64,000 nucleotides of DNA, taken from IMG/VR virus record IMGVR_UViG_3300028734_000016. One strand, 5' to 3'. This DNA comes from a virus. Taxonomy: Duplodnaviria; Heunggongvirae; Uroviricota; Caudoviricetes. Every line of letters starts with the position of its first letter. Position 1 is the stretch's first letter. The notes under the pieces were generated by a model that saw only the letters and a list, made by a program, of their open reading frames with translations, did not search any database and was not told the origin of the DNA. This document shows, piece after piece, positions 10,815 through 62,960 of this stretch. The position numbers and the translations under genes are program-made.

Positions 10815-10824
10815 TACAAAGATA
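10815..10824 (-). promoter_or_regulatory. TAtcTTTGta box (plus-strand TACAAAGATA), Bacteroidota -7-like element
   Basis: ~35 nt upstream of a short unlisted minus-strand ORF starting at 10783. Confidence 0.4.
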
Positions 10825-10875
10825 AAAAAAAATCCTCACATAAGCAAGGATTTTTAATTTATTTATATATTATTA

Positions 10876-11211
10876 TTAGACTTCTTTTGTGTCATCTTCT
10901 TTTATGTCAGTTTCTTTTGTTTCAGTTGAACCATCTTCCATGATATTATCTAGTTTAACTAGTTTTTTTGGTTTCCAAATAAAATAGAAGAGACTTGAAG
11001 CTGCAATAACAGAAAAGAAATATATCACATTAATAATATCAACTGCTGAATTTTGAGTTTTTAATTCATAAATTGCGTTGTCATCAGTGAATTGCTGTGC
11101 TGCTATTTTTGAATAGTCTTGTGTATTCTTATTGATTACCAATTTGTATGATGCTCCAAGGCAAATCAAAAGAATGAAAACTAATAATGATTTTAATATT
11201 TTACTTTTCAT
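10876..11211 (-). CDS. small membrane protein (N-terminal hydrophobic segment plus internal TM), possible NfeD-like partner of the upstream SPFH protein
   Basis: hydrophobic stretches LLVFILLICLGA and VIYFFSVIAASSLFYFIW; sits immediately downstream of the SPFH gene. Confidence 0.5.
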   Translation of the reverse strand: MKSKILKSLLVFILLICLGASYKLVINKNTQDYSKIAAQQFTDDNAIYELKTQNSAVDIINVIYFFSVIAASSLFYFIWKPKKLVKLDNIMEDGSTETKETDIKEDDTKEV

Positions 11212-12170
11212 TATCGTTTTGCTTTTGTTGTGCTAGTGTTCATACTTTTCAAGCCATATAATTCAAGCATTGAAAAATTTCCACCTGCAATAGTAAGATT
11301 ATCAGGTACTTGAAGCTTACCATTTTTTACTGCTTCAGCAAATGCTAATTTTATTGCGATATCTGCATCAAGGTGACTCTGTGCTTCAATGGAAGCTTTT
11401 GCTTTGGCAAATTTATTAGCTGCAATTACCTTATTCTCAGCAGTTTTAATATTCATTTCAGACGAATATTTTTCATTTATTGCACTTTGAATACTAGGAT
11501 TAGAATATGTAAATTGTCCAGCAGAACCAATGTTCATAATTTTTATACCATATAATGCAAAATGTTCTGTTACGTCTTTTGACATTTGAGAGAAAATAGC
11601 ACTTCTATCATTCTGTCCTTGTGTTAAATTTCTATCACCAAATTGGGTAGTTAAACATTTTTGGACGTATCCCCTAACATCAGTATCCATCAAATCTGCT
11701 AACGTTCTTCCACTATATGAATATAAAAATAGTGATGTCCAATCATCTGGAATTGAAGCTGTTGCTGTTATACAAACTGAAAATCCAATTGATTCTTTTG
11801 ACTCTACTTCAATTGCTTCATTTGATGTTTTATTTGAACCACTTCCTGAACCATTCCATTCACGTGTAACAGGAGTACGGTCAACAGTAATAACTCTAAC
11901 TGATGGAATCCATTCACCACTATTTGACATCCTGCCTGTTTTGTGCCATTGAGTTGGAATGTAAATACGTTTTGCAATTACTTTGTTTTGTTCAAGATAA
12001 GCTTGTGATTTCAATTTAGTTTGATTGACTTGTGTGCCATTTTCCAATGGGATCACATAAACAGATTCATTAGGTTTAATCTCTTGGTACTTTTGTACCT
12101 GATAAGGTTTCATACAAGATGACATCAATGCTACTACGAGCACACATACTAAAATCAATTGTTTTTTCAT
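11211..12170 (-). CDS. SPFH/band-7-like lipoprotein
   Basis: lipoprotein-type signal MKKQLILVCVLVVALMSSC; A/K-rich C-terminal helical region typical of SPFH; tracked ORF start (12254) judged an upstream extension. Confidence 0.65.
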   Translation of the reverse strand: MKKQLILVCVLVVALMSSCMKPYQVQKYQEIKPNESVYVIPLENGTQVNQTKLKSQAYLEQNKVIAKRIYIPTQWHKTGRMSNSGEWIPSVRVITVDRTPVTREWNGSGSGSNKTSNEAIEVESKESIGFSVCITATASIPDDWTSLFLYSYSGRTLADLMDTDVRGYVQKCLTTQFGDRNLTQGQNDRSAIFSQMSKDVTEHFALYGIKIMNIGSAGQFTYSNPSIQSAINEKYSSEMNIKTAENKVIAANKFAKAKASIEAQSHLDADIAIKLAFAEAVKNGKLQVPDNLTIAGGNFSMLELYGLKSMNTSTTKAKR

Positions 12171-12221
12171 ACTTTTTTTGTTTTTGTTTTTAATAATAAT
12201 TAATTTTGTTTTTAATTGAGA

Positions 12222-12231
12222 TACAAAGATA
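12222..12231 (-). promoter_or_regulatory. TAtcTTTGta box upstream of the SPFH lipoprotein gene
   Basis: ~50 nt upstream of the ATG at 12170. Confidence 0.45.
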
Positions 12232-12300
12232 CTTCGTTTATTTGAATTTACCAAACTTATTTATGATTATTTTATATAATAAACAAAATAAACATATTAA

Positions 12301-13092
12301 ATGGCTAAAATAGAAAATGATAAGTATTACACACCAATAGAAATTTCTAAATATTGTATAGACAAAACTTTAGAAATTATTGATAATCAGAATATTACAG
12401 ATATTATTGAGCCAAGTGCTGGTAACGGGTCATTTTCAAATCAATTAATATGTACATCATATGATATTGAACCAGAATCTGAAAATATCATTAAACAAGA
12501 TTATTTACAATTAAACATACCATATAAGAAAGGCAGATTGATTATAGGAAATCCTCCGTATGGTACTAAGATGCACTTGGTAATTAAATTTTTCAAAAAA
12601 TCAATTGAGATTGGTGATTATATATCTTTCATATTACCAATTTCTCAATTAGATAATGTGGCAAGTTTATATGAATTTAATTTGGTGTATAGTGAAGATT
12701 TAGGTTTACAATATTATACAGATAGAAAAATTCATTGTGTTTTAAATATTTATAAAAGACCTGATATTGGATTAAATTCGAAGCCTGATTTTAAAATGAA
12801 AGATTTGACTATATTTAGAGAGACATACAAAGGATATAATGATATTGACAATTTTGATTTGAGAATGGTTTATTGGGGGTCAGGATGTGCAGGAAGGATA
12901 TTAACAAAAGATGATAAGAGATATGCTGGAGAATATAAAATTTTTATACATAATGAAAAATTAAAAAGCAGAATAATTGAAGTTCTATCAACTACAAATT
13001 GGAAAAAAGAATTAAAAACAATTGCTATGATGAGAATTAAGCATTATCACATATATAATGTACTAAAAAGAGAAATACCTGAAATATTATAG
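12301..13092 (+). CDS. N6-adenine DNA methyltransferase, gamma-type motif order
   Basis: motif I IIEPSAGNGSF precedes motif IV IIGNPPYG; no adjacent restriction endonuclease. Confidence 0.85.
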   Translation: MAKIENDKYYTPIEISKYCIDKTLEIIDNQNITDIIEPSAGNGSFSNQLICTSYDIEPESENIIKQDYLQLNIPYKKGRLIIGNPPYGTKMHLVIKFFKKSIEIGDYISFILPISQLDNVASLYEFNLVYSEDLGLQYYTDRKIHCVLNIYKRPDIGLNSKPDFKMKDLTIFRETYKGYNDIDNFDLRMVYWGSGCAGRILTKDDKRYAGEYKIFIHNEKLKSRIIEVLSTTNWKKELKTIAMMRIKHYHIYNVLKREIPEIL

Positions 13093-13112
13093 TTTCAGGT
13101 ATTTTTATTTGA

Positions 13113-13502
13113 TTATATACTTTTAAAATCTTCCAGTATTTTATCTATCATTTCACCACTGTGAATCTCGTCATATATATGTCCAGTTTCTGTGTTATAT
13201 GGTATTGCATATACATCAAAAACTTCATCAACAATTGAATAAATACACACAAAATCATTTTCAATGTCTAGTGATGCAGGAAAATCCAATGACATGAAAA
13301 TTTTCTTAGCTCCGTCATCTAAATATTGTTTTGCCATTTTATAGCATGATTCAACATCACCTCCCAATGCTAATGAATTCATTTCGAATTTACCATCATT
13401 TGTTTCTACAAATAATTGAAATGGATAATGTCCATAACAATCTTCACTTTCAATTAATTCAATTTTAACTAATTGTTCTACAAATTCTTTTACATTTTTC
13501 AT
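13113..13502 (-). CDS. hypothetical protein
   Basis: 129-aa ORF. Confidence 0.5.
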   Translation of the reverse strand: MKNVKEFVEQLVKIELIESEDCYGHYPFQLFVETNDGKFEMNSLALGGDVESCYKMAKQYLDDGAKKIFMSLDFPASLDIENDFVCIYSIVDEVFDVYAIPYNTETGHIYDEIHSGEMIDKILEDFKSI

Positions 13503-13515
13503 ATTATATTATTTT

Positions 13516-14010
13516 CTATTTTATAATTTTTAATTTAAATTTTCTTAATGACGTATAGGTATAAAAATAATTATCATAATCAATTCTTTCAACTCTTGAT
13601 TTTTCTATTGCTACTTTATCTGATATTACTGAAACTATAAAAGATGAAATAAATATTAATCTTTGGTTTGATATGCCGTTAAATATATTAAATGAATTAT
13701 CGTTTTTGAAATATTTACACAAAAAAATAACAGTACAATTTGAATTAGAATCTACAAAAGAATAATCAAAAATAGATTTTGTCATATCCTCAATAAAAAT
13801 AACAGTTTTTTCACGTATTTGGTTTGTTATACTTTGTAATTTTTCAAAACTACTAATATAATTTATAGTTTTTATTTTATATTTCATTTTTAATAAATCT
13901 TCTTTGATCATCATCAAGAACCATTTATTATTAGCATTTGAATCCATTATGAATGTTATTTTTTGTCCTTCATATCTTTTTATATTATTTATTAAATCTT
14001 TATATACCAT
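13516..14010 (-). CDS. hypothetical protein
   Basis: 164-aa ORF. Confidence 0.5.
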   Translation of the reverse strand: MVYKDLINNIKRYEGQKITFIMDSNANNKWFLMMIKEDLLKMKYKIKTINYISSFEKLQSITNQIREKTVIFIEDMTKSIFDYSFVDSNSNCTVIFLCKYFKNDNSFNIFNGISNQRLIFISSFIVSVISDKVAIEKSRVERIDYDNYFYTYTSLRKFKLKIIK

Positions 14011-14115
14011 ATTTAATTGTTGAATAACGAATATAAGGAATATATTTCACATAAAAAAATAGTTAGATAAAAATCTAACTATTTTTTTATAAATCTCTAT
14101 TTAATATATTTTTTA

Positions 14116-14634
14116 TTATAAATCTCTATTTAATTTATCAAGTTTAATTTTTCTGACTTCTTTTATAGTATCACTATATGAAAGATTGTTTTTACGTTCA
14201 GTCCAAACTCTATTTTTAATATTATCTCCTGAATTGTCATAGCATGATTTGCATATAATAGAAATCCAACCTTTTGTTGAACCAATATCTTCAGTAGAAC
14301 CACAAAACTCACAAACACTACCAGACATATTTTCTGTCATACTTATCATACCATCAATCTGTGAATTGCCTCCATAATAATAGAAACAAAGAATTCCAAA
14401 TTTTTCTTTTACTTGTGATGCTACAACTTGCGGAATTTTTTCATCATCAGATAAAAACTTATTATTAGTATCTATATAACTTTGAATAGAATAGCATAGT
14501 TGATCTAATAACCAAAACCATCCATCACCATGTTCAAACCCCCAACACATTGCAGTCTTGGTCATATTTTCATACCGATTTACAAAAATTTTAGGATATT
14601 TTTCAACTAAATAGCTATCTAAATTTTCAGTCAT
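14116..14634 (-). CDS. hypothetical protein, immediately downstream of clpP
   Basis: 172-aa ORF abutting the clpP stop. Confidence 0.55.
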   Translation of the reverse strand: MTENLDSYLVEKYPKIFVNRYENMTKTAMCWGFEHGDGWFWLLDQLCYSIQSYIDTNNKFLSDDEKIPQVVASQVKEKFGILCFYYYGGNSQIDGMISMTENMSGSVCEFCGSTEDIGSTKGWISIICKSCYDNSGDNIKNRVWTERKNNLSYSDTIKEVRKIKLDKLNRDL

Positions 14635-14635
14635 A

Positions 14636-15391
14636 TTATTTTACTTGTTTAAATACATATTTCATATAATATTCATCAAAACCATCCATCATAGTTGTAA
14701 TTGAATTGGATTTATTATCAGCTAATCCAATGACATTATCTATCAAACCATAATTCAAAGCTTCATCAGAATTTAACCACATATCTCTTTGACAAAAATC
14801 ATGAATTTCTTCAAATGACTTGTCAGTATTAAGAGCAAGAATTTTGAATAGTAAAAAATTGTATTTTTCAGTTTCCATTTGACTAATACGAGTATCATCT
14901 ACTTTGCCACTAGTTCCTGCTGCAACGTGATGTAGCATAACTGTTGAATTAATTAATGATGAACGCTTACCTTTTGCTCCAGATGATAGAAGTACACTAC
15001 CCATTGAAGCGCACATTCCTAAATTGACTGTGGCTACATTAGGTTTAATATAGTTCATAACATCTATGATTCCTAACCCATGAGTCACACTACCGCCTCC
15101 TGTATTAATTTGCATTGTAATGTCCTTTTGAGGATCAGAATCTTCTAAATATAATAATTGTGCTTGAATAATATCAGACATTGTATCATCAACGTCACCA
15201 GACACCCATAAAATTCTATCCATCATAAGTCTATCAAACACAGATAGTTGAGTTACATTCAATTGTCGTTCTTCTAAAACATGAGGAGATAAGCCATAAT
15301 TTTCAGCTTGATATTTTGTTGCATCATCTACTAATGTAGAACTCATTCCTAAATGTTTGGTAGCAAACTTTTTAAATTCATTTTTGTGCAT
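14636..15391 (-). CDS. clpP: ATP-dependent Clp protease proteolytic subunit ClpP
   Basis: GMCASMGS (Ser), MLHHVAAG (His), ILWVSGDVDD; full-length canonical ClpP. Confidence 0.9.
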   Translation of the reverse strand: MHKNEFKKFATKHLGMSSTLVDDATKYQAENYGLSPHVLEERQLNVTQLSVFDRLMMDRILWVSGDVDDTMSDIIQAQLLYLEDSDPQKDITMQINTGGGSVTHGLGIIDVMNYIKPNVATVNLGMCASMGSVLLSSGAKGKRSSLINSTVMLHHVAAGTSGKVDDTRISQMETEKYNFLLFKILALNTDKSFEEIHDFCQRDMWLNSDEALNYGLIDNVIGLADNKSNSITTMMDGFDEYYMKYVFKQVK

Positions 15392-15427
15392 AATTTAATA
15401 TTTTAATTATTAATTGATTGATTGAAT

Positions 15428-15436
15428 GCAAAGATA
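15428..15436 (-). promoter_or_regulatory. TAtcTTTGc box ~36 nt upstream of the clpP ATG
   Basis: plus-strand GCAAAGATA. Confidence 0.45.
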
Positions 15437-15558
15437 AGGAAATTTTTTGATTTACCAAAGGAAAATCATTATTATTTATATAAATAAACCTATAATTGAA
15501 TAATAAACTGATATGATTTATTGTACGATTATAGGTTTATTATAAAGTTGATTCAGAT

Positions 15559-15903
15559 TTAATCTTCTACTGGTTCATCTGTGCTAATTGAATCATCAGA
15601 ATTTTCTTCATCATCATTGAGTTGTGCTATCATCAAATCTTTCATTTTTTGCATCCTTTCGTCAGCAAAAAGTGATTTCACTTTTTCATCATCAATTGGA
15701 TATGAAATTTCATTATCTAATACATGATAAAGATAGTCAATAGCTAAATCTTGATCAGCTTTTTCGCAAATAAAATCAAGTAAAGCTAACTTTTCAGTCT
15801 CATTAAGATCAAAGATTTTAATTTCTTTAACCTCATTTAGAAATGTTTTCTGTTCTTCAGTTGATGGATTAACCATTTCTGACAATTTTTCTGTAATATT
15901 CAT
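15559..15903 (-). CDS. hypothetical acidic protein
   Basis: 114-aa ORF, D/E-rich C-terminus. Confidence 0.5.
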   Translation of the reverse strand: MNITEKLSEMVNPSTEEQKTFLNEVKEIKIFDLNETEKLALLDFICEKADQDLAIDYLYHVLDNEISYPIDDEKVKSLFADERMQKMKDLMIAQLNDDEENSDDSISTDEPVED

Positions 15904-15956
15904 AATTTTTTATTTAATTAATTTGTTTGTTGTTTAATTTTAATATTATAATTTAA

Positions 15957-16199
15957 TTAATATTCTTCTTCCTCAATTTCTGCTCCATCTTTATCTAAGT
16001 TTCTAAAATCATCATAATCATTAAGATCTTGAATGTCATTTGCTACCACCTCTACTATTTCAATATCATCATATGGTACGGGATTATCTTGAATAAGACT
16101 CTCTGCCAGTTCTTGTGCAAATTGTTCTACTCTCTCATAATCAGCTTCTTCTGATTCTATTGATAATGTCAATTGAATTTTGTATTCTTTTATTTTCAT
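15957..16199 (-). CDS. hypothetical acidic protein
   Basis: 80-aa ORF. Confidence 0.45.
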   Translation of the reverse strand: MKIKEYKIQLTLSIESEEADYERVEQFAQELAESLIQDNPVPYDDIEIVEVVANDIQDLNDYDDFRNLDKDGAEIEEEEY

Positions 16200-16214
16200 A
16201 TTTTGTTTTTGTTT

Positions 16215-16418
16215 TTATTTTATTTTATTATCTTCTAATACATAAATATTTCTTATCTTATGTGAAGGAGTGAATGTATAATTCTCTCCTATGTGTTGCC
16301 AAACACCATTATTTCCTATTGCTGTTACATTTTGTTTTAAACTATATTCATTCTCATATTCTGCAGGTATAGTAATTACTGTATTATCTTCAAGATTTAC
16401 AATTATATTATAATTCAT
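16215..16418 (-). CDS. hypothetical small protein
   Basis: 67-aa ORF. Confidence 0.4.
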   Translation of the reverse strand: MNYNIIVNLEDNTVITIPAEYENEYSLKQNVTAIGNNGVWQHIGENYTFTPSHKIRNIYVLEDNKIK

Positions 16419-16465
16419 AGATTTAATTTTTTCTTATATACTATAATAAAATAAATAAGTTTATA

Positions 16466-16780
16466 TTATTTATTGAATATTAGAGTTAATTCATCATTTG
16501 GGTAAGGATGCTTCAATAATTGTCTTTTGAATATTTTCAACATACTATCTTGCTTTGTTTTACAAATTGGAAAATTATTATTTGTTGTATTATTAAATTC
16601 CATCAATGTGTTATTGTCAAAATCTAAATCCATTGTATTATCAAAATTTATTGTTAATTCTAATAAAATATCATCATAAGAACTATCAAATCCTAATTGA
16701 TATGGATAAAAATTAATATTATATTTTTTATTACCATCAACATCTTCTAAATGTGAGTATTTTTTATCGTTAAATTTCAT
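16466..16780 (-). CDS. hypothetical protein
   Basis: 104-aa ORF. Confidence 0.45.
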   Translation of the reverse strand: MKFNDKKYSHLEDVDGNKKYNINFYPYQLGFDSSYDDILLELTINFDNTMDLDFDNNTLMEFNNTTNNNFPICKTKQDSMLKIFKRQLLKHPYPNDELTLIFNK

Positions 16781-16785
16781 AATTA

Positions 16786-17034
16786 TTATTCATAATAGAA
16801 TGCAGCAAATGGGTCATTCTTTATTGATTTTATTAAATCATATTGTTTATTTTTTGGTGTATTATCCAATATAATTCTAATCTCTGGTGTATCTTGAATT
16901 AAAAATCCACCAGTTATAAACTGTTCTCCATTTTTCTCAATTACAGCTAATCCATTTGTTCTTGATACCCTATTTGCAATAAGTTCAATTTCTTCGTAAC
17001 CATTAGTTTCTGGTGTGATGTGTAATGCTTTCAT
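16786..17034 (-). CDS. hypothetical protein
   Basis: 82-aa ORF. Confidence 0.45.
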   Translation of the reverse strand: MKALHITPETNGYEEIELIANRVSRTNGLAVIEKNGEQFITGGFLIQDTPEIRIILDNTPKNKQYDLIKSIKNDPFAAFYYE

Positions 17035-17579
17035 ATGTCTACGTTTATTATTATATTTGGTGTATATTTTTCTTCTATTGAATTAATATAATATTTATTT
17101 TTTGTATAAGTTATATTATAATTGGTTGTTTTATTATCATCATATCCAATTATTGCAATTACAACAATATCATCAATAGTGAAAATAGCGTCAATTCTAA
17201 TATAATTGTGAATTCTCTTATAATGACTTTCTAATTCAGTACAATATTTTTTATTGTTGTCACATATTTCTTTTTCCAAAGTTGAAATAATATTCAGTTC
17301 GTGTTTTATATAATTCAAATTTTTATAAATACTGCGTAAATAATTTTTACTTGATATTGATGTTTTTAATCTTTTGATATTTGGAATATCACGATTTGAA
17401 TAATATTTTACTACTGATTGATTATTTTTTTTTTCAATTAAAATATTAATAATATAATCTAAGTTATTTGAATTATAAAAAAATGATATTTTTTTTTCAT
17501 GACAACCTACAAATTCAACATCAAAATTCTTTTTGAATATATATTCTTCTATTTTTTTTATAGTCTCTGTGTCAGTCAT
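17031..17579 (-). CDS. hypothetical protein
   Basis: 182-aa ORF, ATGA overlap with upstream gene. Confidence 0.5.
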   Translation of the reverse strand: MTDTETIKKIEEYIFKKNFDVEFVGCHEKKISFFYNSNNLDYIINILIEKKNNQSVVKYYSNRDIPNIKRLKTSISSKNYLRSIYKNLNYIKHELNIISTLEKEICDNNKKYCTELESHYKRIHNYIRIDAIFTIDDIVVIAIIGYDDNKTTNYNITYTKNKYYINSIEEKYTPNIIINVDI

Positions 17580-18282
17580 CAGTCATCAGTTTAATAAGTT
17601 TTTCTTTTCTTATTATTTTAGTTATATCATTGCTAAACGTCTTGTTTGTTTCAATTTTTGAAATTAATGCTAATTTTTTTGACTCTCCATCATAATATAA
17701 CTGTAATAATATATTTGAATTATTATTATTTAAAAATACTGAAATATTATATCTTGAATAATGTTCTAATGATGTGTCAAATAATTTATCATTATATGTT
17801 TTTTTGCTATTTATTCTTAATATACTATTTTTTGATGAAAATTGAATAGTTATATAATCAGAATGAAATCCTCTAACTGAAAAATCATTATACTTTAAAT
17901 CATCATAATGATTATATGTTTTTTTAATATAATTATTTATTGTATCTTTTATACCTATTTTATCAATTTCTCTTTTTTGTATATAAATATCTAATTTTAT
18001 AATCTTTTTTAAAAATGTTTTGAAACTAGATATGATTTTTTTTTCTACACAAAAATCATTAATAATAGTAAATTCTAACTCTTTAATATCTGAAAATGGA
18101 TGACAGTTAAAAAAGGAGAACTTATAATCATCAGTGACAGATATAATATATTCTGATTCATTTATAATATATTTTATTTCTGCAAATGAAGAATATCTAA
18201 CATTTGAATTTGTTTCCCCAAAAATCAAATTTGGAAATTTTCCTGAATTTCTTAAAATATTATATACTTCTAATGATGTCAT
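17572..18282 (-). CDS. hypothetical protein
   Basis: 236-aa ORF. Confidence 0.55.
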   Translation of the reverse strand: MTSLEVYNILRNSGKFPNLIFGETNSNVRYSSFAEIKYIINESEYIISVTDDYKFSFFNCHPFSDIKELEFTIINDFCVEKKIISSFKTFLKKIIKLDIYIQKREIDKIGIKDTINNYIKKTYNHYDDLKYNDFSVRGFHSDYITIQFSSKNSILRINSKKTYNDKLFDTSLEHYSRYNISVFLNNNNSNILLQLYYDGESKKLALISKIETNKTFSNDITKIIRKEKLIKLMTDD

Positions 18283-18334
18283 TTATATTTAATCTTATCT
18301 TATAAAGATAATATATTTATTTGTAATTACCAAA

Positions 18335-20218
18335 TTAATTGTTCAACATTTTTTCTAAATCTTCAACACTTAACAATTTCACTCCAATCTCTTCTGCTTT
18401 AACTGCCTTGCTTGATAAAGAATTTTTATCTTTCATAACTAAGTATGTTAAATTTTTAGATACACCAGATGCAACTTTACCTGATTTTGAAATTATGATT
18501 TCTTCTAAATCTTTTCGTCGTATTCCAGTAAAACAAAAAGACACATTTTCTAATTCGTTTGTTACCATAATAATATTTTCTTTTTTTGTTTCAATTGTTA
18601 TTTGAGGTTTATCTTGTAACCATTCATAAAATGTATCATAAGCATCAAGATATGCATGTGCAGATTTATCTGAGAATCCTTTAATTGATAGAATTTCGTC
18701 AAGTGATGGTTTACCTTCAAAATGCATTAGTAATTCAATTTTTTTACTACCAAGATTCACAAAGAAATTTGAAGAATGCATTAATTTAGATAATTTGACA
18801 TTTTTTATAGAAGATTGAATACTATTATATATAATTTCAGCCCTTCTCTCACCAAATCTATCTAATGATTCTAATTCTGATTGTGTTAATTCCAATATTT
18901 GTTTAACAGTCTTATATCCAGAGTTATATAACTGATTGATAATACCTTCTGATACATTATCAGCTTCAAGTATTTCAAAGAAAGATATCAATTTCTTAAT
19001 TTCTTGTTCTTCAGTTCCTTCAACCATTAATTCTACTTCATTTTCATTCCAGAAAACTTTTGAACTACCAAAAGTTGGCATTTCAAATCCAGTTGCAGAA
19101 ACAATTTGAACAATCTTTGGTATTACCAAACCTGACCGAATTATTTTTACAATACTTCCAACTCCTAAATCATGTTTTTTTACAAATTTATAGTTATTTA
19201 AGGTGACACGTGATACTGTAGCACCATCAATATTCACTGGAATTATTCGCCCAACTGGCTTAAGTAATCCGTTTTTCGAAACTTCTTTTACAATTTCAAG
19301 TATGGTTGTTTCTGCTGATTCTGCCCATTCAGGATTCTTATATGCTCTTGCGTATGATGGATTATTGTTAGTTTCACGACCAAGTTTTTTTCTGATGTCT
19401 TTGTCATTTATATCAAAAACAAGTCCATCAATATCATAATCTTTACCCCATTCAATAAAAATATCATTTAGCTCATCAAAATTCAAATCTTTTGCTTTGA
19501 ATATTTTGTATGGTACATTAGATAAATTAGTACTGATGAAATCTAATTGTTCAGATTTATCTTGAGTGAAATCTTCGCTTGCATAACCATAACGAATATG
19601 TTTAGCAAATTTCAAATCTTCGGATGGAGTATCAGAATTTTTAAGTCCAGCAATCATATTACGAGCATTCTTAAATGGCTTACCATTATCTCTATAAAAT
19701 ACTCTACTATTAAAAACTTGTTTTGGAAAAATCATTTCTCCAATAGTAAACAAATTAATATTTTTACTATCATCATTCAACTTTTTGTAGTGCAAATGCA
19801 TAGTTTCGCCAGTGATGCCATTTCCTCTTGACCAAGCAAGTTGTTTATATTCATCTTTAAGAATTGACATACCATCATATTTTGATGTACAAACCAATTC
19901 TGTTTCTAATGGTAACCCTTTATTTTTCAACCATTTGTGAATTTCTACAATTGTGTGATATTTATCCAATGAATACATTGGAAATTTTAAATTTTCTTTT
20001 CTGTCTGGATTGACATCTTCGCTATCTTCAATAACGCCAGATTCAAATATTTCATTATCTGGGTCTAATTTTTGAAATGTAGAAATTACTTTATCATATT
20101 CAGGATCACTGATTTCAGGTTCTCCGTCACGATATTTCTTATTTAGTTTTTTGACTTCAACTGCTGCAGACTCAAACATACCGTATTCTAATAATCGATA
20201 AATTTCTGATAATTCCAT
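18335..20218 (-). CDS. ligA: NAD-dependent DNA ligase
   Basis: N-terminal YRDGEPEISDPEYDKV, adenylation motif SKYDGMS, C-terminal BRCT-like region. Confidence 0.9.
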   Translation of the reverse strand: MELSEIYRLLEYGMFESAAVEVKKLNKKYRDGEPEISDPEYDKVISTFQKLDPDNEIFESGVIEDSEDVNPDRKENLKFPMYSLDKYHTIVEIHKWLKNKGLPLETELVCTSKYDGMSILKDEYKQLAWSRGNGITGETMHLHYKKLNDDSKNINLFTIGEMIFPKQVFNSRVFYRDNGKPFKNARNMIAGLKNSDTPSEDLKFAKHIRYGYASEDFTQDKSEQLDFISTNLSNVPYKIFKAKDLNFDELNDIFIEWGKDYDIDGLVFDINDKDIRKKLGRETNNNPSYARAYKNPEWAESAETTILEIVKEVSKNGLLKPVGRIIPVNIDGATVSRVTLNNYKFVKKHDLGVGSIVKIIRSGLVIPKIVQIVSATGFEMPTFGSSKVFWNENEVELMVEGTEEQEIKKLISFFEILEADNVSEGIINQLYNSGYKTVKQILELTQSELESLDRFGERRAEIIYNSIQSSIKNVKLSKLMHSSNFFVNLGSKKIELLMHFEGKPSLDEILSIKGFSDKSAHAYLDAYDTFYEWLQDKPQITIETKKENIIMVTNELENVSFCFTGIRRKDLEEIIISKSGKVASGVSKNLTYLVMKDKNSLSSKAVKAEEIGVKLLSVEDLEKMLNN

Positions 20219-20250
20219 ATTTTTTTGTTTTATATTTTTTGTTTATGAAG

Positions 20251-20260
20251 TACAAAGATA
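20251..20260 (-). promoter_or_regulatory. TAtcTTTGta box ~33 nt upstream of the ligase ATG
   Basis: plus-strand TACAAAGATA. Confidence 0.45.
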
Positions 20261-20320
20261 AAAAATATATCTTGAATAAAAAAATTATTCAAGATATATT
20301 TATGAAATATATGAAATTTA

Positions 20321-21121
20321 TTATATTTTAACTTTTACCTGTTCTGTGTTCCTATTAATTGCATTAGATATGCTATAAAATTCAGGAAAGTCTAATGATT
20401 TTTCCATACTAACAAATGAATCTATCGTGCCAGGAGAAATATCTTTAACGTAATTTGAAAATTTATTAGTAGCATCCTGTATAGCTAATTGTCTTGTTTT
20501 CATTGTAGGTGTAAAATAAAACTCATCTTTAAATGCTTGAGACATTAATCCAATAAAATAACAGCAATCTAAATAATTTTCTATTTGATCAGTTGATTCA
20601 AATTTAAATAATTGATTATATTTTTGAATATTTGTCAACATTATATTTTTATCATCAGAATCTAGTACATTATCAATTATATATCTAACTGAAGAACGAA
20701 TTGTAGTTGGTTCATGTCCTCTTGTTGTAATAATCGCAAATAATCTTCCTTCTTTTAAAGTTGATAGTAATGATTTCCATGATGGTCCGAAGTCTTTATT
20801 TTTTATTGCTTTTTTGATATCATCAAGTAGTGAATTATCTCCTCTTGCTCCGCTGTCTACAAATTCTGAAAAAGTATATTTAGTATCAGCTTTCCATTCA
20901 TTATTATCTATATAATTATCTGGATATTTTTCACGTATTTTAGAAAAATCTTGTATTGATATGTCTTTATTTATCCATTTGTCATTTTCAAAATGTTGAA
21001 AGTGTAAAGGAGTATTCATGATAAGCAAATTATCATCAATATCAAATATAGAATATTGTGAATTACCTACACTTTGTTGCTCTAAAATAAATGAATTCCA
21101 ATCTTTGACTATTTTGCTCAT
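20321..21121 (-). CDS. hypothetical protein
   Basis: 266-aa ORF. Confidence 0.55.
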   Translation of the reverse strand: MSKIVKDWNSFILEQQSVGNSQYSIFDIDDNLLIMNTPLHFQHFENDKWINKDISIQDFSKIREKYPDNYIDNNEWKADTKYTFSEFVDSGARGDNSLLDDIKKAIKNKDFGPSWKSLLSTLKEGRLFAIITTRGHEPTTIRSSVRYIIDNVLDSDDKNIMLTNIQKYNQLFKFESTDQIENYLDCCYFIGLMSQAFKDEFYFTPTMKTRQLAIQDATNKFSNYVKDISPGTIDSFVSMEKSLDFPEFYSISNAINRNTEQVKVKI

Positions 21122-21447
21122 TATAAATTAAATTTTTTTGTAGATTTATACAATTCTGTATCTTTCATATATTCAACTATATCATTATATTCTTCGTCTG
21201 TTATAGATATTGTACCTTTTTGATAATTTTTCAAGGCAAAAGATATTTTATAACCGCCTGGTTTAAGTGAACTTTTATATATGCTGTCTGATTTTATAAT
21301 AAAATCAGGTGAATTTTGAAATCCGTGATTTTTTCTAAATTCATCATTTGTATTTACATAATCATCAACAACTCTCATCATATTATCATAATATCGATCT
21401 AATTGAATTTTCTTTGAATAATATTCGCCAAAACTATATACTGTCAT
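21121..21447 (-). CDS. hypothetical protein (ends ...KKFNL)
   Basis: 108-aa ORF. Confidence 0.5.
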   Translation of the reverse strand: MTVYSFGEYYSKKIQLDRYYDNMMRVVDDYVNTNDEFRKNHGFQNSPDFIIKSDSIYKSSLKPGGYKISFALKNYQKGTISITDEEYNDIVEYMKDTELYKSTKKFNL

Positions 21448-21495
21448 TTAATAATTTATTTTTATTTAATGTATATATAAAAATAAAAATCCATC

Positions 21496-22341
21496 TTAAA
21501 CAGATGGATTTTTCAATAATTTTGTTTTAATAAATTCTTCATCAATTTTAACTAATTGAATATCATGTGAGTTTATATAATCATCAATTTCAGTGTTACC
21601 TTCTTTTTTTAATTCTCCCATTATATTCCAAACATTCGAATAATCATTATCACCTTTTGATTTCTCAGAAATTAAAAGGTTAGTTACAATTTTTCTTTTT
21701 CTTTTTTCGTCTGAAGGAATATTTTCTAGTATCTTTTGATACAAGATATCTCCTCTGAAATACTCATTAAAGTTATTGTAATAATGTGTTGGATCGAATA
21801 TCATAATCTTCATTGATAAACCTTTATTATTATTAAATGCATACCAATCTTTTTCTCTTTCGTTCCATTCATCTTCTGATACATTTTCATCTGCATCACA
21901 TTGATTTTGACAATACCAATCTGTTAGAAATTCTAAAAGAATTTTTCTATGCTCTCCTACATTAATATTAGGAAACACTAATATTTTATCATTTTTACAA
22001 TCAATTGATAAACTAAGATCAACCATAAATTCATTTTTGTATTGTCCTTTTGATAATATGTTACCAGCTTGAAATAAATAAGAAATTACTGTTGTGTTAT
22101 CTTCAATTGAGATGTTTTTTATTTCATTTTTTATTGAATTGATTTCATTGATAGCTGAATATTCCATTTGATGAATAATATTACATTTTTCATCAACATG
22201 TAATATAATATTTCTAGCATAACACTTTGCTAATTCATTTTGTGATGCTCCTTCAAATCTATCAAATCTTTTCAAAATTTCTTCTTGTATATATGCTAAA
22301 CCATTTCTGGTCATCATGCCATCATATGCTTTTAAACTCAT
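21496..22341 (-). CDS. hypothetical protein
   Basis: 281-aa ORF. Confidence 0.55.
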   Translation of the reverse strand: MSLKAYDGMMTRNGLAYIQEEILKRFDRFEGASQNELAKCYARNIILHVDEKCNIIHQMEYSAINEINSIKNEIKNISIEDNTTVISYLFQAGNILSKGQYKNEFMVDLSLSIDCKNDKILVFPNINVGEHRKILLEFLTDWYCQNQCDADENVSEDEWNEREKDWYAFNNNKGLSMKIMIFDPTHYYNNFNEYFRGDILYQKILENIPSDEKRKRKIVTNLLISEKSKGDNDYSNVWNIMGELKKEGNTEIDDYINSHDIQLVKIDEEFIKTKLLKNPSV

Positions 22342-22601
22342 AATTCTTTATTTATATTGTTTAATTCTTTCAATTTGAATTTTCTTAATTCAGAATATTT
22401 TATAAATCTTTGCTTTCGAAAACTAAATCCTGGTATTTCAAATAAAGCAATTTCTCCATAACTATTTATGTTATTAAATGTATAAATATTACCAATTTTT
22501 AATAATCTTAAAGAGCAGTAGCCTAATTCCGCTCCAGTGTATTTTGATGTATTATCAATGCAAACAAATTTTTCACCTTTTTTATATTGAATTGATTTCA
22601 T
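22338..22601 (-). CDS. SH3-like small-protein family member (YKKGEKFVCIDN...LRKFKLKELNNI)
   Basis: alignable by eye with 24160, 24404 and 28346-29203. Confidence 0.55.
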   Translation of the reverse strand: MKSIQYKKGEKFVCIDNTSKYTGAELGYCSLRLLKIGNIYTFNNINSYGEIALFEIPGFSFRKQRFIKYSELRKFKLKELNNINKEL

Positions 22602-22603
22602 AT

Positions 22604-22828
22604 TTAATATTCTAGTTTTTCTCTATTATTTTTTAGATATTTATAGATACTTCCGAATATTTTATAAAAACTACCAATTTCACATATTACTTTTCTATTC
22701 TCAATTATCATTTTAACTAACTTAGATTGATTACCTGTCAAATTTTTTATATTTGATTCTTTAACCCAGTTAGAATATATTTCATTATCTTTCATATTCA
22801 AGTATATTATTTCACAAATATACAACAA
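22604..22828 (-). CDS. hypothetical small protein
   Basis: 74-aa ORF. Confidence 0.4.
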   Translation of the reverse strand: MLYICEIIYLNMKDNEIYSNWVKESNIKNLTGNQSKLVKMIIENRKVICEIGSFYKIFGSIYKYLKNNREKLEY

Positions 22829-22846
22829 AAAATTGATATAAAAAAA

Positions 22847-23209
22847 TTATTTATTTTTTATATCAATTATTGTATTAAATAATTTGTTAAATTTAGATTT
22901 CAAATCATTTAAATCTTTTTCGTATTCATTCATTTCATCTATAACAGCATCTATATCGCAGAAGAAATATTTATTGTTGTGTTCTATTTTTGAGTTTTTG
23001 AACTCTGTTTTATTTAATGGAAAACATAATCCAGTACCTTCAAAATCTTTATCATTTGCTAATCTTTCAACATAATAACCAATTGCTACTGCATATCCTA
23101 TATTATCAAAACCTATACATTTTGTTTTAATAAAACTATTTATATTATCATTATAATATTCTAAAATATATATTGGCTCTCCTACCAATAAATCTGTCCA
23201 TTTTTTCAT
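22847..23209 (-). CDS. hypothetical protein
   Basis: 120-aa ORF. Confidence 0.5.
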   Translation of the reverse strand: MKKWTDLLVGEPIYILEYYNDNINSFIKTKCIGFDNIGYAVAIGYYVERLANDKDFEGTGLCFPLNKTEFKNSKIEHNNKYFFCDIDAVIDEMNEYEKDLNDLKSKFNKLFNTIIDIKNK

Positions 23210-23220
23210 AATTTATAAAA

Positions 23221-23463: not shown

Positions 23464-23478
23464 TTTTTACTATTATTT

Positions 23479-24131: not shown

Positions 24132-24159
24132 ATCCTATTTTATTTTTATTATTTATATG

Positions 24160-26448: not shown

Positions 26449-26450
26449 AT

Positions 26451-29724: not shown

Positions 29725-29734
29725 TACAAAGATA
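29725..29734 (-). promoter_or_regulatory. TAtcTTTGta box ~26 nt upstream of the ATG at 29699
   Basis: plus-strand TACAAAGATA. Confidence 0.45.
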
Positions 29735-35024: not shown

Positions 35025-35158
35025 TATCAAATGAGAGATCCAGGTTAATGTCCTGGCTAAGTAATATAAAAGTTACCTTAGGTGTGTGTGAGCTATCTCT
35101 CTTTTTTAAATTTTACAAAGAAAGAAGGTGAAACATTAGGTTGTTTCACTTTTTTTTA
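35025..35158 (+). ncRNA. candidate structured small RNA of unknown class, ORF-free and relatively GC-rich, ending in a hairpin+T8 terminator
   Basis: nested stems: GAGAGAT(35033-39)/ATCTCTC(35095-101) enclosing CCAGG-TTAATGT-CCTGG and CTAAG-(15 nt)-CTTAG; 3' hairpin GTGAAACA-ttaggt-TGTTTCAC then T8. Confidence 0.45.
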
Positions 35159-35218
35159 TTATATTTGTTATAGTAAAAAAATATAGTAAAAAATATAATA
35201 ATTAAGATTTTTAAATAG

Positions 35219-50153: not shown

Positions 50154-52682
50154 TTAAACTTTAGTATTTTCTGTCAATATGTTACCATTCTTAATTTCGT
50201 TATTTGAAATTTTAAAGATTTTAACTGAAGAACTTTCTTTATCATATATCAATGATAATGTATCACCAACTGATATTTCTTGATCAATAATAGCATCAGT
50301 AAGTTTATCTTCAATATTACTCTGAATGACTCTCTTTAATGGTCTTGCACCATAATTTTCATCATAACCATTTTCAAATAAATAATCTTTAAGTGATTGA
50401 GATATAATTACATCATATCCTTTTTCTTTAAGATTTGAAATTAAAGATTTACATTCAACATCAACAATGCTACAAATGTTTTCTTTACTCAAAGAATTGA
50501 AATTGATAACTTCATCTACACGATTTAAAAATTCAGGACTAAAAACTTTTTCTAATTCTTTTTTAAGAACTGAATTTTTAGAGTCTTGATTATTTTTATT
50601 AAGTCCAAATCCAATACCAGTACCAAAATCTTTCAATTTTCGTGAACCAGCATTTGTTGTCATAACAATAATAGTATTTTTAAAATCGACTTTACGTCCA
50701 TTACTATCTGTCAATACACCATCATCCAACACTTGAAGAAGGATATTTTGAACATCAGGGTGAGCTTTTTCAATTTCATCAAGAAGAATAATAGAATAAG
50801 GCTTACGTCTAACTGCTTCAGTTAATTTACCACCATCTTCATATCCAACATATCCAGGAGGTGCTCCTACTAATCTAGATACTGAGAATTTTTCCATAAA
50901 TTCACTCATATCAATTCTAATCATAGCATCTTCAGAACCAAATAACTCCTTTGCCATAATTTTAGCAAGATATGTTTTACCTACTCCAGTAGGTCCTGAG
51001 AAAATAAATGTGCCAACTGGTTTATCATGACTATTTATACCAACTCTTGATCTCTTAACTGATTGAACTATTTTGTCAACTGCTTCATCTTGTCCAATAA
51101 CAATAGTTTTAACTTTATTAGCCATATATTTAAGCTTATTGTTTTCATCAACAGAAACATTATCTACAGGTATTTTTGTTATAAGAGCAACAACTTCAGC
51201 TATATCCTGTTGTGTTACCAAAGGACGATTATCAGAATGTGATTGACTCCATGTTTCTTTTTCAGTTTCAAGTTCAGATTTCCATTGTTTTTCATTATCT
51301 CTATGTTCAGCAGCAATTTCATATTTCTGATTTGAAATACAATCAAGTTTTTCCACAATAGATATTTTTATTTTTTTGCTGAGTTCAACAATTTTTACAG
51401 GAATAGCACTTGTACCATTAACGTGAACCATAGCGCCAGCCTCATCAAGAACATCAATTGCCTTATCTGGAAAGAATTTTTCTGATATATATTTACCAGA
51501 CAAATTAACACAAGCTTCTAATGCATCATCAGTATATGTAACTTTGTGATGATCTTCATATTGTTTTTTTATATTTTTCAGAATTTCTAAAGTTTCTGAC
51601 TTACTGGTTGCCTCAACAACAACTTTCTGAAATCTACGTTCTAATGCAGCATCTTTTTCTACATACTTACGATATTCTTCAAGTGTAGTAGCACCAATAC
51701 ATCTAAATGTACCTCTTGCTAATCCTGGTTTCAACATATTGGAAGCATCGAGTGAACCTTGGGCTGAGCCAGCACCTATAATAGTATGAATTTCATCAAT
51801 AAAAAGAATAATGTCAGGATTTTCTTCCATTTCTTTGACAATACCTCTTAATCTTTGTTCAAATTCACCACGATATTTAGTTCCTGCTACTAAAGAACCC
51901 ATATCAAGAGTAATAATTTTCTTATCCTGTAAATTTTCAGGAACAAGTCCATCTACGATTAACTGAGCCAATCCTTCTACAATAGCAGATTTTCCTACTC
52001 CAGGTTCTCCTACCAAAACAGGATTGTTTTTCTTACGTCTTGATAAAATCTGTGAGATTCTTTTAATTTCATCTGCACGTCCTACTACTGGATCAAGTTT
52101 ACCTTCTTTTGCAAGATTGGTCAGATTTGTACCAAATTGATCAATCAATTTAGTTTTTGATTTGCTCTTTCCTTTTACTTCTTGTTCTTGTTCTTCGTCC
52201 ATGTTACTATTTTCTAATTCATCATTAATATTAAGTTCATCTTCTTCATTTTTTAATTTGTTTTTTAAACTTCTTAAAATTTCAGGTGATTTATTAAATA
52301 AATCTGAAACAAGGTTATTATTATTATCCAATATTGCATAAAAAACATGCTCAATACAAACTTCATCTGAGTCCATTGATTTGGCAAAAACCACAGATTC
52401 TTTTAGAATTTTTTCAGTTTCTAATTCTAATGGAATAGAAGCATTCTTTCTAAGAGAATTCAAACCATTCTGTTTTTGTAAATCTTTAGACCAATCACGA
52501 ATTGTTGATTTGATAGCATTAATATTGAGATTTAAATCTCTCATTATATTAGATGCTTCAGAATATTCCTCATCTATCATTGCTAAGAATAAATGCTCAG
52601 GCCTGATTGTGTTAGATTGAATAATAATTGCAATTCCCTTACTTAGTTTAATAACTTCTTCTACTTCTTTCGAGTAATTCAT
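50154..52682 (-). CDS. clpC: ClpA/ClpC-type AAA+ unfoldase (two Clp_N repeats, D1 and D2 ATPase modules, short middle region, IGF-type ClpP-docking loop)
   Basis: [15 protein letters not shown] + ILFIDEIH (D1); [15 protein letters not shown] + [14 protein letters not shown] (D2); GTGIGFGL loop. Confidence 0.9.
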
Positions 52683-52966: not shown

Positions 52967-53260
52967 TTATTGTTCTATTGTGAGAGATAATCCTTTCTCT
53001 TCTAATAATTTTTTGTAAGGCTCCAATGATTCTTTTGAGCCAGTTTTAATAATATCTTTACCTATAAGATGAACATTATAAGCTGATGCTTGACCTCTTT
53101 CAAATGAAAATTTTAAATATGCCATTAGACAAGTTATTACCCATTCGAATGAATTCACATCATCATTCCACAATATTAATTTATACTCTTCTTCAGTATT
53201 ACTAGAAATACCATTTTCTGATAAAATGTCTTCCAATGATTTTGTTTTTATTTTCTCCAT
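52967..53260 (-). CDS. clpS: ClpS-like N-degron adaptor
   Basis: YKLILWNDDVNSFEWVITCLMAYLKFSFERGQASAYNVHLIGKDII matches the ClpS core. Confidence 0.75.
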   Translation of the reverse strand: MEKIKTKSLEDILSENGISSNTEEEYKLILWNDDVNSFEWVITCLMAYLKFSFERGQASAYNVHLIGKDIIKTGSKESLEPYKKLLEEKGLSLTIEQ

Positions 53261-53468
53261 AACTTATTATATATGTATATACTTTACTATATAGTTTATT
53301 TAATTATCTATTGTAATTGATAGTGCAAATTTACAACATTTTTTCCTAATAACAAAACATTTTATGATATTATTTCAATAATATATTCAATTGTCTGATT
53401 ATAAGTAAAATTTATACTAAATATATCACAATATGAATCACTCATAGTTATATTTACTGCTTGTCCTG

Positions 53469-60273: not shown

Positions 60274-60442
60274 ATATTTATCTAATATTATTTTATTTTA
60301 TTTTTAAGTTTATATTTTTACAAATATAATGAATTTATTTCATAAATCAAAATATTTATAGTTTAACTTTATTTTATATGATCAAAAACATTAATTGTTT
60401 TATAATATATAATAAATTATTAAAAAATAAACAATAAAAACT

Positions 60443-61621: not shown

Positions 61622-61635
61622 TTATATATATCAGC

Positions 61636-62055
61636 ATGATAACAGAATTCAAATTATTCGAGAACTCAGATGATAAAGTCACATTGGTATTGGATGATAT
61701 TGTAGATTACTTTGATAGTCATGAAGATTCAATACGAAATTTCATTTTCAAATTATTTAATTTCAACAATAACATTGTTGAATTTAATTGTAATAAATGT
61801 ACAGATGATATAAATGGTGTTACAAATTTTATACATTCAAATAAACATCATAAAGGAATTATAAACGGTAGAAGTTATGGATTTAATTATGATCTTAAAC
61901 ATATATACTTAACATTGAGATTGAAAAGAATAAAATTTAGTCATATAGTAGACACAAATTCTCAGATGACAATTTATGGAAATATTCCTGGTGATATAAA
62001 AAAAATAATAAATGATATTAATATAAAAAGACAAGCAAATAAATTTAACATATGA
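61636..62055 (+). CDS. MIxEFKLFEN...CNKC...NKFNI family protein
   Basis: paralog of 62470-62907. Confidence 0.6.
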   Translation: MITEFKLFENSDDKVTLVLDDIVDYFDSHEDSIRNFIFKLFNFNNNIVEFNCNKCTDDINGVTNFIHSNKHHKGIINGRSYGFNYDLKHIYLTLRLKRIKFSHIVDTNSQMTIYGNIPGDIKKIINDINIKRQANKFNI

Positions 62056-62468
62056 TACTAACTACTTCAGCAATTTTAAACATTTTAATAATACTTTTTT
62101 TATTATTAATATCTGGTATATCTAAATCTATAACTGATATATCATCTTCTCCTAATTTATTTTACAAGTCAAGATTATATTTAAAATATAAATTAAATCC
62201 AAAATTTTGGGAACAAGGATTGGGGTCTCTCAATAAATATAAAAATGCCAATCCATTAAATGGAGAAAAATTCATAGGAAGTACTACTATTTTTGTTGTG
62301 TTTACTGATGCATGGCATTTATTTTGGTTTATATCTGAAATAACTATGATTCTTGCATCTGTTATAATCACATTGAATACATCTATTTGGTTTGTTATGT
62401 TGGCATTTTCAATTAAACTGATATTTTTTGAAATTGTTTTTAATTATTTAAGGAAAAAAATTAATTAA
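62052..62468 (+). CDS. multi-pass membrane protein
   Basis: 138 aa, 3-4 hydrophobic segments; ATATGA overlap. Confidence 0.5.
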   Translation: MILTTSAILNILIILFLLLISGISKSITDISSSPNLFYKSRLYLKYKLNPKFWEQGLGSLNKYKNANPLNGEKFIGSTTIFVVFTDAWHLFWFISEITMILASVIITLNTSIWFVMLAFSIKLIFFEIVFNYLRKKIN

Positions 62469-62469
62469 T

Positions 62470-62907
62470 ATGATTATAAATTTCAAAATATTTGAAAATA
62501 CAGAAACCGAAACAACATTCATACTAAATGATTTGTTAAATTACTATTCTGGTAGTTACACGAAAATTAAAAAATTTCTTAGTAATTTGTTGATAGTTGA
62601 TACATTAGTTGAATTTAATTGTAAGAATTGTTATGATAAAGAAAAAAATATTTTTATAGATGTACCTCAAATAGTTAAAGGTAGAATCAACACCATAACA
62701 GAGTGTACGACTGGATATCAAGGCACTTTACAACACAAGAAAAGAATATTTGTTCTATTATCATTAATATTAACTACAAATGATAATTATATTTACCATG
62801 TTGACAATAAATCATCATTTACTATTTATGGTAATATTACAGAAAAACAGAAAAAAGTAATCAATGAAATGAATTTAACAAGAATCTCAAATAAATTCAA
62901 CTTATAA
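62470..62907 (+). CDS. MIINFKIFEN...CKNC...NKFNL family protein
   Basis: paralog of 61636-62055. Confidence 0.6.
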   Translation: MIINFKIFENTETETTFILNDLLNYYSGSYTKIKKFLSNLLIVDTLVEFNCKNCYDKEKNIFIDVPQIVKGRINTITECTTGYQGTLQHKKRIFVLLSLILTTNDNYIYHVDNKSSFTIYGNITEKQKKVINEMNLTRISNKFNL

Positions 62908-62952
62908 TAATATAAAAGATGATAATTATTAGTAAAGGTTATATTTTTTTTG

Positions 62953-62960
62953 TATCTTTG
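62953..62960 (+). promoter_or_regulatory. plus-strand TATCTTTG box ~30 nt upstream of the ATG at 62990
   Basis: TTTTTTGTATCTTTGCG. Confidence 0.45.

Follow-up and report, generated by a model that had tools for sequence, protein, structure and literature searches.

What reads the short box that recurs upstream of genes in a 64,000-nucleotide stretch of Caudoviricetes DNA (IMG/VR record IMGVR_UViG_3300028734_000016, here called the window)? The box, TAnnTTTG, was described in an earlier note on this DNA as a match to the promoters of Bacteroidota. Its motif, orientation, spacing, conservation and host-like context, as they emerge from the sequence and from comparison with other phages, argue that the boxes are very probably the -7 elements of promoters for the Bacteroidota primary sigma factor (sigma-ABfr), carried by a huge phage of ~24% GC content related to the 'Mahaphage' genomes. 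The promoter mechanism would be the one already known, with nothing changed: a known kind of signal in a new place. The literature that we searched yielded no account of the promoters of Bacteroidota phages or of huge phages.

An Oriented Box Upstream of Genes

The exact decamer TACAAAGATA occurs five times in the window, where 0.75 ± 0.81 copies are expected and none of 100 shuffles reaches five. Four copies lie at plus-strand positions 10815, 12222, 20251 and 29725. The earlier note had placed the decamer upstream of five minus-strand gene starts, including that of clpP, and ahead of a plus-strand gene at 62990. It is exact at four of these six sites, and its 8-mer core, TATCTTTG, is exact at all six; the clpP site (15427–15436, TGCAAAGATA, entered as TATCTTTGCA in Table 1) has one mismatch to the decamer, and the site of the 62990 gene (62953–62962) has two, both at the 3′ end. 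Between box and ATG lie 27–53 nt at these sites, where 25–55 nt had been stated, and one of the genes, said to start at 10783, really starts at 10780. The fifth exact copy, at 36803, had gone unlisted; it lies antisense within the thymidine kinase gene, and we regard it as probably the single copy expected by chance, outside the promoter set.

Reading all upstream regions added five members (8738, 22813, 35160, 53324 and 60319), giving 11 credible sites. The first of these is the copy reported as degenerate near 8736–8754 (TACAAAAGTA in that form), which we locate at 8738–8747; the other four are new. All 11 sites match the Bacteroidota -7 consensus TAnnTTTG, as had been proposed, with TATC (6), TATA (3), TACT (1) or TAAA (1) followed by TTTG and no G at the inner positions. 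TATCTTTG is present at 6 of the 11, which is unusually uniform, and the box lies 19–65 nt from the ATG across the set.

The signal becomes visible only after coding DNA, intergenic DNA and orientation are separated. Counted over the whole window with no such split, TAnnTTTG is not enriched (124 copies, 134 expected). In intergenic DNA, 16 copies are in the sense of the downstream gene and none is antisense, compared with 6.5 ± 2.5 and 5.9 ± 2.3 in dinucleotide shuffles of the same DNA. Likewise, of the eight copies of TATCTTTG, six are sense-intergenic, a class that takes in 5.3% of strand positions (binomial P = 6e-7). Five intergenic hits were set aside: 3553, which is 148 nt from a gene; 12201, which is not conserved in the related loci L016 or L011; 12252, which is the -33 region of the 12222 promoter; 24678 (TAGGTTTG), 1 nt from an ATG; and 25531, inside a possible TTG-start open reading frame (ORF).

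Anatomy of the Probable Promoters: -33 Element, Terminators and Leaders

The housekeeping sigma factor of Bacteroidota, studied in B. fragilis, Flavobacterium, B. thetaiotaomicron and F. psychrophilum, recognizes a -33 TTTG and a -7 TAnnTTTG (PMC6847099, PMC7366714, PMC9723704). The -7 box spans -12 to -5 and ends 4–5 nt from the start site, G is virtually absent from its inner positions (TAHHTTTG), leaders are short (33 nt on average in F. johnsoniae, with medians of 24 nt for F. psychrophilum and 32 nt for B. thetaiotaomicron), and genes are without Shine-Dalgarno sites (PMC6847099, PMC9723704, PMC7366714). The Flavobacterium form has been quoted as TTG-N17-23-TAnnTTTG, Chlorobi differing in the -7 tail (bioRxiv 10.1101/172254), and the -33 element is weak or absent in many real Bacteroidota promoters (PMC6847099).

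Every sigma-ABfr feature that is testable from sequence is found here. The boxes share with these promoters the -7 word, the exclusion of inner G, a TTG at a 19–20 nt spacer, a T-rich stretch before the box and the lack of Shine-Dalgarno sites; the start that they imply would also lie 4–5 nt beyond the G, giving leaders some tens of nucleotides long. A TTG or TTTG, which was not selected for, lies exactly 19–20 nt upstream at 6 of the 11 window sites, and six of the seven window copies of TTTG-N18-21-TAnnTTTG are sense-intergenic. Predicted leaders are 15–61 nt long and A-rich, and a Shine-Dalgarno core precedes just 2 of 105 window genes. Matches to the sigma-70-type -35/-10 pattern (TTGACA-N16-18-TATAAT), counted over 8000–27999, are no more frequent than in shuffles (190 versus 185.8 ± 13.9). 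The boxes are unlike cellular sigma-ABfr promoters in that they sit in a phage genome, in that the window prefers one version, TATCTTTGTA, and in that several window copies are joined directly to the T-tract of a preceding terminator.

Boxes 10815, 20251 and 35160 directly follow stable T-run hairpins (z = -5.7 to -7.8; Table 1), and an AT-only hairpin with a T-run, seen by eye, precedes the 22813 box; these four are predicted terminator–promoter junctions. Four other boxes (12222, 29725, 53324 and 60319) lie in divergent intergenic regions, that at 29725 heading a long block of minus-strand genes.

In the mechanism that we propose, host RNA polymerase holoenzyme would bind the -7 box, together with the -33 TTG or TTTG 19–20 bp upstream where one is present, and would start transcription at about the fifth nucleotide after the G of the box. 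The resulting A-rich leaders, without Shine-Dalgarno sites, would be translated in the Bacteroidota manner. At several sites the T-rich stretch that precedes the -7 box would come from the terminator T-tract; several boxes directly follow a terminator hairpin, and each would therefore open a new, insulated transcription unit. The boxes would thus split the window into about eleven units, namely the 30-amino acid (aa) ORF ahead of a tRNA-Leu cluster, the SPFH protein, ClpP, the NAD-ligase, the ClpS-ClpA/B run, the SbcCD fusion and five of unknown function, which suggests that the Clp system, the ligase and SbcCD could be expressed by unmodified host polymerase.

The Box Is Conserved in Related Phage Loci

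We retrieved 170 IMG/VR loci with ClpP, ligase and ClpA homologues, and took statistics from 41 mutually non-redundant loci (714 kb) of the ClpP and ligase sets. In these relatives TAnnTTTG occurs at 2.69 per kb sense-intergenic, 0.74 antisense and 0.71–0.97 coding, a 3.6-fold sense excess. The sense-intergenic count of 187 compares with 60 ± 7.5 in shuffles (z about 17), and the antisense-intergenic count of 42 is not enriched over the 51 of the shuffles. Motif discovery, suggested in the earlier note as a check, recovers the box de novo: in an unanchored search of co-directional intergenic regions the most strand-asymmetric 8-mers (sense/antisense) are TATATTTG (57/2), ATATTTGT (48/4) and TATCTTTG (37/1), and TATATTTG and TATCTTTG rank first among words other than A-runs. 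A logo of 160 sites has T and then A or C at the inner positions, G appearing there 4 and 9 times, and T after the G of the box; a TTG, again not selected for, peaks at a 19–20 nt spacer in 74 of the 160. The bipartite pattern has 76 sense-intergenic copies, 5 antisense copies and 67 in 765 kb of coding DNA, and most sites are no more than 60 nt from the ATG.

Upstream of orthologues the box is kept for 10 of the 11 downstream genes (the 30-aa ORF, 10780, SPFH, ClpP, ligase, 22795, 29699, ClpS, SbcCD and 62990), while leaders and flanks differ by substitutions and indels; the remaining gene, 35219, falls outside the loci compared. The promoter of the 30-aa ORF, together with the ORF itself, is 97% conserved in L016. 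That locus also has an identical box at the orthologue of the 10780 gene, with compensatory changes in the hairpin just upstream. The SPFH promoter retains its -33 and -7 elements in L016 and L011, with indels in the leader. Wherever clpP has an intergenic region (L016, L011, L019, L052, L071, L091 and L095), it is preceded by TATCTTTG or TATGTTTG. The ligase box and its hairpin are invariant in four relatives (hairpin conserved in L007, L012, L014 and L013), where the ligase is 68–80% identical. The 22795 gene has a conserved TATATTTG in L016 and L011, and the 29699 gene keeps its box in L015 and L010, while L014, whose protein is just 42% identical, has it as TATATTTG. Orthologues of the ClpS promoter carry TAAATTTG (L185) and TACTTTTG (L189), varying at the two 'n' positions only; those of the SbcCD promoter carry TATCTTTGTA (L185) and TATTTTTGTA (L189) within otherwise unalignable flanks, and the 62990 gene is preceded in L185 by TAATTTTGTA at the corresponding position.

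The relatives also display a sharp peak at exactly 4 nt between box and ATG (26 of about 190 sites, versus 2–5 at neighbouring distances), with a smaller second peak at 15–16 nt. Examples of the 4-nt arrangement are L176:19975-20003 (the LR756502 ligase) and sites in L050, L052, L071, L035 and L036; none of the window sites has this spacing. In the Mahaphage ligases, which are 42% identical to that of the window, TATATTTG lies 4–6 nt before the ATG. The simplest reading is that the 4-nt boxes specify leaderless mRNAs starting at the A of the ATG, which would be frequent in the more distant relatives; the spacing agrees with the distance published for Bacteroidota between the -7 box and the start site. 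This differs from F. psychrophilum, in which 5.5% of mRNAs are leaderless (PMC9723704).

Phage and Host Context

The window has a GC content of 24% (17% in intergenic DNA) and a coding fraction of 91%, with ~106 short, tightly packed ORFs. Genes identified include tail-fibre-like and baseplate-like genes, homing endonucleases, ClpP, ClpS, a ClpA/B-like ATPase, an NAD-ligase, an SbcD-SbcC fusion, NusG-like and S1-like proteins, Sir2 and thymidine kinase. Its best protein matches are LR756501-4 and LR745206, the 634–735 kb 'Mahaphage' genomes of Al-Shayeb et al. 2020, for all of which Bacteroidetes hosts are predicted (PMC7162821). The ligase protein is also found on contigs in the 0.2–1 Mb size class, and the window is therefore a piece of a huge phage. 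Deposited phages include no close DNA relative, giving only short, weak DNA matches. A scan of bacterial genomes for the nearest cellular ClpP, as a route to the host, was uninformative (~42% identity to Bifidobacterium and others); the top ClpP match is a phage contig within a Prochlorococcus single-cell assembly. Sequence searches of the PDB with conserved proteins of 628 and 424 aa returned nothing useful.

The isolated Tenacibaculum phage PTm1, our positive control, repeats the pattern, with 3.0, 1.2 and 1.0 copies of TAnnTTTG per kb in sense-intergenic, antisense-intergenic and coding DNA, and its bipartite sites number 8 sense and 0 antisense. Listeria and Mycoplasma phages, as negative controls, have no orientation bias of TAnnTTTG. 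The sense-versus-antisense intergenic count thus separated a known Bacteroidota phage from these, and could be used as an inexpensive way to classify viral contigs by host phylum. For an uncultured, extremely AT-rich huge phage, the box would be a host pointer readable from sequence: its TTTG tail and the near-absence of Shine-Dalgarno sites point to Bacteroidota, in agreement with the predictions for the related 634–735 kb genomes.

What Could Read the Box

The sequence supports the promoter reading along several independent lines. Some observations weigh against recognition by the host sigma-ABfr. A -33 TTG at the right spacing is absent from 5 of the 11 window sites. The TTG-N20-TA geometry is also that of sigma-70 promoters, so that the phylum is signalled by the TTTG tail and by the lack of Shine-Dalgarno sites, and not by the spacing. 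Inside genes lie 108 of the 124 window copies, which makes the 8-mer alone insufficient. An intended negative control, the 'Microcystis' phage Mel-JY01, carries what appear to be very similar promoters, laid out as TTG-N19-20-TA(A/T)GTTTG, which is unexpected for a cyanophage. The 64 kb inspected belong to a genome of at least 235 kb, with room for a phage-encoded sigma factor. Finally, early timing of the box genes is proposed by analogy.

That room matters for the best of the alternatives, in which a phage-encoded sigma factor or phage RNA polymerase, resembling or copying the host consensus in its specificity, reads the box and makes the box genes a phage-controlled class (middle or late). 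Some huge phages do encode sigma-70-family factors of their own (PMC7162821), and the uniformity of the window copies would suit such a factor. Against this, no sigma or RNA polymerase domain was detected among the ~50 window proteins scanned, and cellular sigma-ABfr shares the motif, the -33 spacing, the TAHHTTTG rule and the implied start distance (PMC6847099). The same box also occurs in very distant phages, PTm1 included, for which a shared host factor is the simpler explanation. We therefore consider a phage-encoded reader unlikely.

We give still less credence to the idea that a DNA-binding regulator, of phage or host, uses the box as its operator, or that the box is some other cis element distinct from a promoter core. 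Like an operator, it is short and well conserved, its place ahead of genes is fairly constant, and an exact 10-mer recurs; but it is non-palindromic and strictly oriented (16 to 0 in the window, 187 to 42 in the relatives), it keeps a fixed 19–20 nt register to the upstream TTG and a fixed 4-nt register to the ATG in the putatively leaderless cases, and orthologues differ freely at its inner two positions but keep TA and TTTG unchanged. Least probable of all are an accident of composition, in intergenic DNA so rich in AT, and a role as a translation signal: the low intergenic GC content and the lack of window-wide enrichment would suit an accident, but the shuffles of window and relatives and the de novo 8-mers refute it as far as sequence statistics allow, A-rich leaders would favour the antisense orientation of so T-rich a word, and the 19–65 nt range of distances to the ATG excludes a ribosome-binding role.

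Recognition by the host holoenzyme, our preferred reading, bears on timing. The early promoters of T4, T7 and lambda follow the host sigma-70 -35/-10 consensus. The boxes resemble them as near-consensus promoters for the host holoenzyme that would allow expression without phage factors; they differ in belonging to another sigma lineage, TTGACA/TATAAT not being enriched here. Because host-holoenzyme promoters need no phage factors, the box genes are, by this analogy, most likely early or constitutive. None of those whose function could be assigned is structural; they encode ClpP, ClpS (with the ClpA/B-like ATPase after it on the same strand), ligase, SbcCD and SPFH. A separate temporal class is plausible, and both the non-structural character of these genes and the existence of a second class of motif, described below, fit that idea. 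A test of temporal class by gene function was uninformative, because most genes beside either motif have no Pfam or PHROG match. The NusG-like gene of the phage fits the use of a bacterial multisubunit polymerase.

A Second Motif Marks Other Genes

A second element, a T-run followed by the palindrome TATATATA, is statistically stronger than the box. It has 18 intergenic copies, compared with 3.5 ± 2.1 in dinucleotide shuffles, and its density is 3.05 per kb in intergenic and 0.12 in coding DNA (25-fold); T5-N0-2-TATATA occurs 24 times where 2.2 are expected. Other AT-only palindromes are not enriched. The element often lies 18–25 nt before an ATG and, in divergent regions, is sometimes flanked symmetrically. 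For the 21447, 47126 and 49725 genes, orthologues have it upstream as well. It marks many other genes, several of which are without a box. Both tail-fibre-like genes are without a box; that at 145–1956 is downstream of a T-run and TATATATA, and the nearest such element to the 54011 gene is 216 nt upstream.

The element matches no Bacteroidota sigma motif described in the literature examined, and is possibly a second class of promoter, phage-specific or late. T4-type late promoters consist of TATAAATA, read by gp55. The T-run with TATATATA is similar in being a single AT-only octamer near the start codon with no -35-like partner, and dissimilar in its word, which is different and palindromic, and in its frequent position in divergent intergenic regions. 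No gp55-like or gp33-like gene came to light, though no search was aimed at one.

This second motif and the leaderless peak of the relatives are the more novel leads, and may tentatively be combined with the boxes into a two-tier code, a proposal that we put forward as speculative. In such a code, host sigma-A boxes, often fused to terminators, would drive insulated, host-like auxiliary cassettes (Clp, ligase, SbcCD and the small ORF ahead of the tRNAs), the T-run with TATATATA would act as a promoter specific to the phage, possibly late and possibly bidirectional, with a factor of phage origin taking part in its reading, and the 4-nt boxes of distant relatives would yield leaderless mRNAs that are commoner than reported for the presumed hosts.

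The homing-endonuclease gene at 42261–43025, with two TATATATA elements (region 42160–43025), is missing from L185 and L189, both close relatives, where the neighbouring gene is directly preceded by coding sequence. It looks like a recent insertion.

Table 1. Positions of boxes, hairpins, second-motif copies and selected genes (window coordinates unless stated; distances to the ATG are from the box)
Feature	Position	Strand	Details
Putative promoter	8738..8771	-	TTTG 8768-8771, 20-nt spacer, TACTTTTGTA 8738-8747; predicted start ~8735; 30-aa ORF 8593-8685 (MKNYNNIMNLLLLNLLLQNNRTENIMSYLL)
Hairpin terminator	8542-8567		After 30-aa ORF, just ahead of three tRNA-Leu genes; fold z = -6.65
Putative promoter	10815..10847	-	TTG 10845-10847, 20-nt spacer, TATCTTTGTA 10815-10824; 36 nt before ATG 10780, 58-aa ORF
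Intrinsic-terminator hairpin	10828..10855	-	T-tract runs into box 10815-10824; terminator scan; -13.2 kcal/mol, z = -5.74
Putative promoter	12222..12255	-	TTTG 12252-12255, 20-nt spacer, TATCTTTGTA; 53 nt before ATG 12170, SPFH/Band-7 protein
Putative promoter	15427..15459	-	TTTG 15456-15459, 19-nt spacer, TATCTTTGCA; 37 nt before ATG 15391, ClpP
-7 box TATCTTTGTA	20251..20260	-	34 nt before ATG 20218, NAD-dependent DNA ligase; no correctly spaced -33 TTG
Terminator-like hairpin and T-run	20263..20301	-	Abuts ligase box; -17.3 kcal/mol, z = -7.80
-7 box variant TATATTTGTG	22813..22822	-	19 nt before ATG 22795, 63-aa ORF
-7 box TATCTTTGTA	29725..29734	-	27 nt before ATG 29699, 168-aa ORF
Terminator hairpin and T8	35120..35157	+	Immediately upstream of 35160 box; -17.7 kcal/mol, z = -6.75
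-7 box variant TATATTTGTT	35160..35169	+	51 nt before ATG 35219, 283-aa ORF
Decamer TATCTTTGTA	36803-36812	+	Antisense within thymidine kinase gene; without T-run or -33 TTG
Putative promoter	53324..53356	-	TTTG 53353-53356, 19-nt spacer, TAAATTTGCA; 65 nt before ATG 53260, ClpS; same-strand gene run reaches ClpA/B-like ATPase
Putative promoter	60319..60351	-	TTTG 60348-60351, 19-nt spacer, TATATTTGTA; 47 nt before ATG 60273, SbcD-SbcC fusion
-7 box TATCTTTGCG	62953..62962	+	29 nt before ATG 62990, 143-aa ORF
T-run and TATATATA	2442, 2738, 3430, 3483, 21472, 32569-32580, 38211, 42208, 42235, 47150, 49773, 53787, 55717, 61623
Mel-JY01 repeats	10578-10620, 12983-13025, 13082-13124, 13662-13704, 17189-17231, 20660-20702		Coordinates of Mel-JY01
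NT5C-type 5'-nucleotidase	3779-4396
Ankyrin-repeat protein	4393-4860
ClpP	14636-15391
Sir2-family protein	26451-27128
Thymidine kinase	36692-37288	-
NusG-like elongation factor	38785-39300
Ribosomal-protein-S1-like	40005-41162		Several S1 domains
DUF1599	47925-48539		Nucleotide-modification associated
GH15-like/TPR protein	48622-49725
ClpA/B-like ATPase	50154-52682
ClpS	52967-53260

Other Genes and Observations

ClpP, ClpS and the ClpA/B-like ATPase, as annotated, are a complete phage Clp set. Together with the NusG-like and S1-like proteins they would equip the phage to reshape host proteolysis, transcription elongation and the translation of mRNAs without Shine-Dalgarno sites. Four tRNA-Leu genes lie at 6973–8521, with anticodons CAA, TAG, TAA and TAA, and an ORF resembling a LAGLIDADG/helix-turn-helix homing endonuclease (7048–8238) is situated between the first and second of them. 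In the deposited sequence of 'Microcystis phage Mel-JY01' (PP395634.1, L184), a very uniform repeat, AAAAAAGTTCTTGCAT-N16-17-TA(A/T)(G/A)TTTGTA, has a Bacteroidota-like -33/-7 layout.

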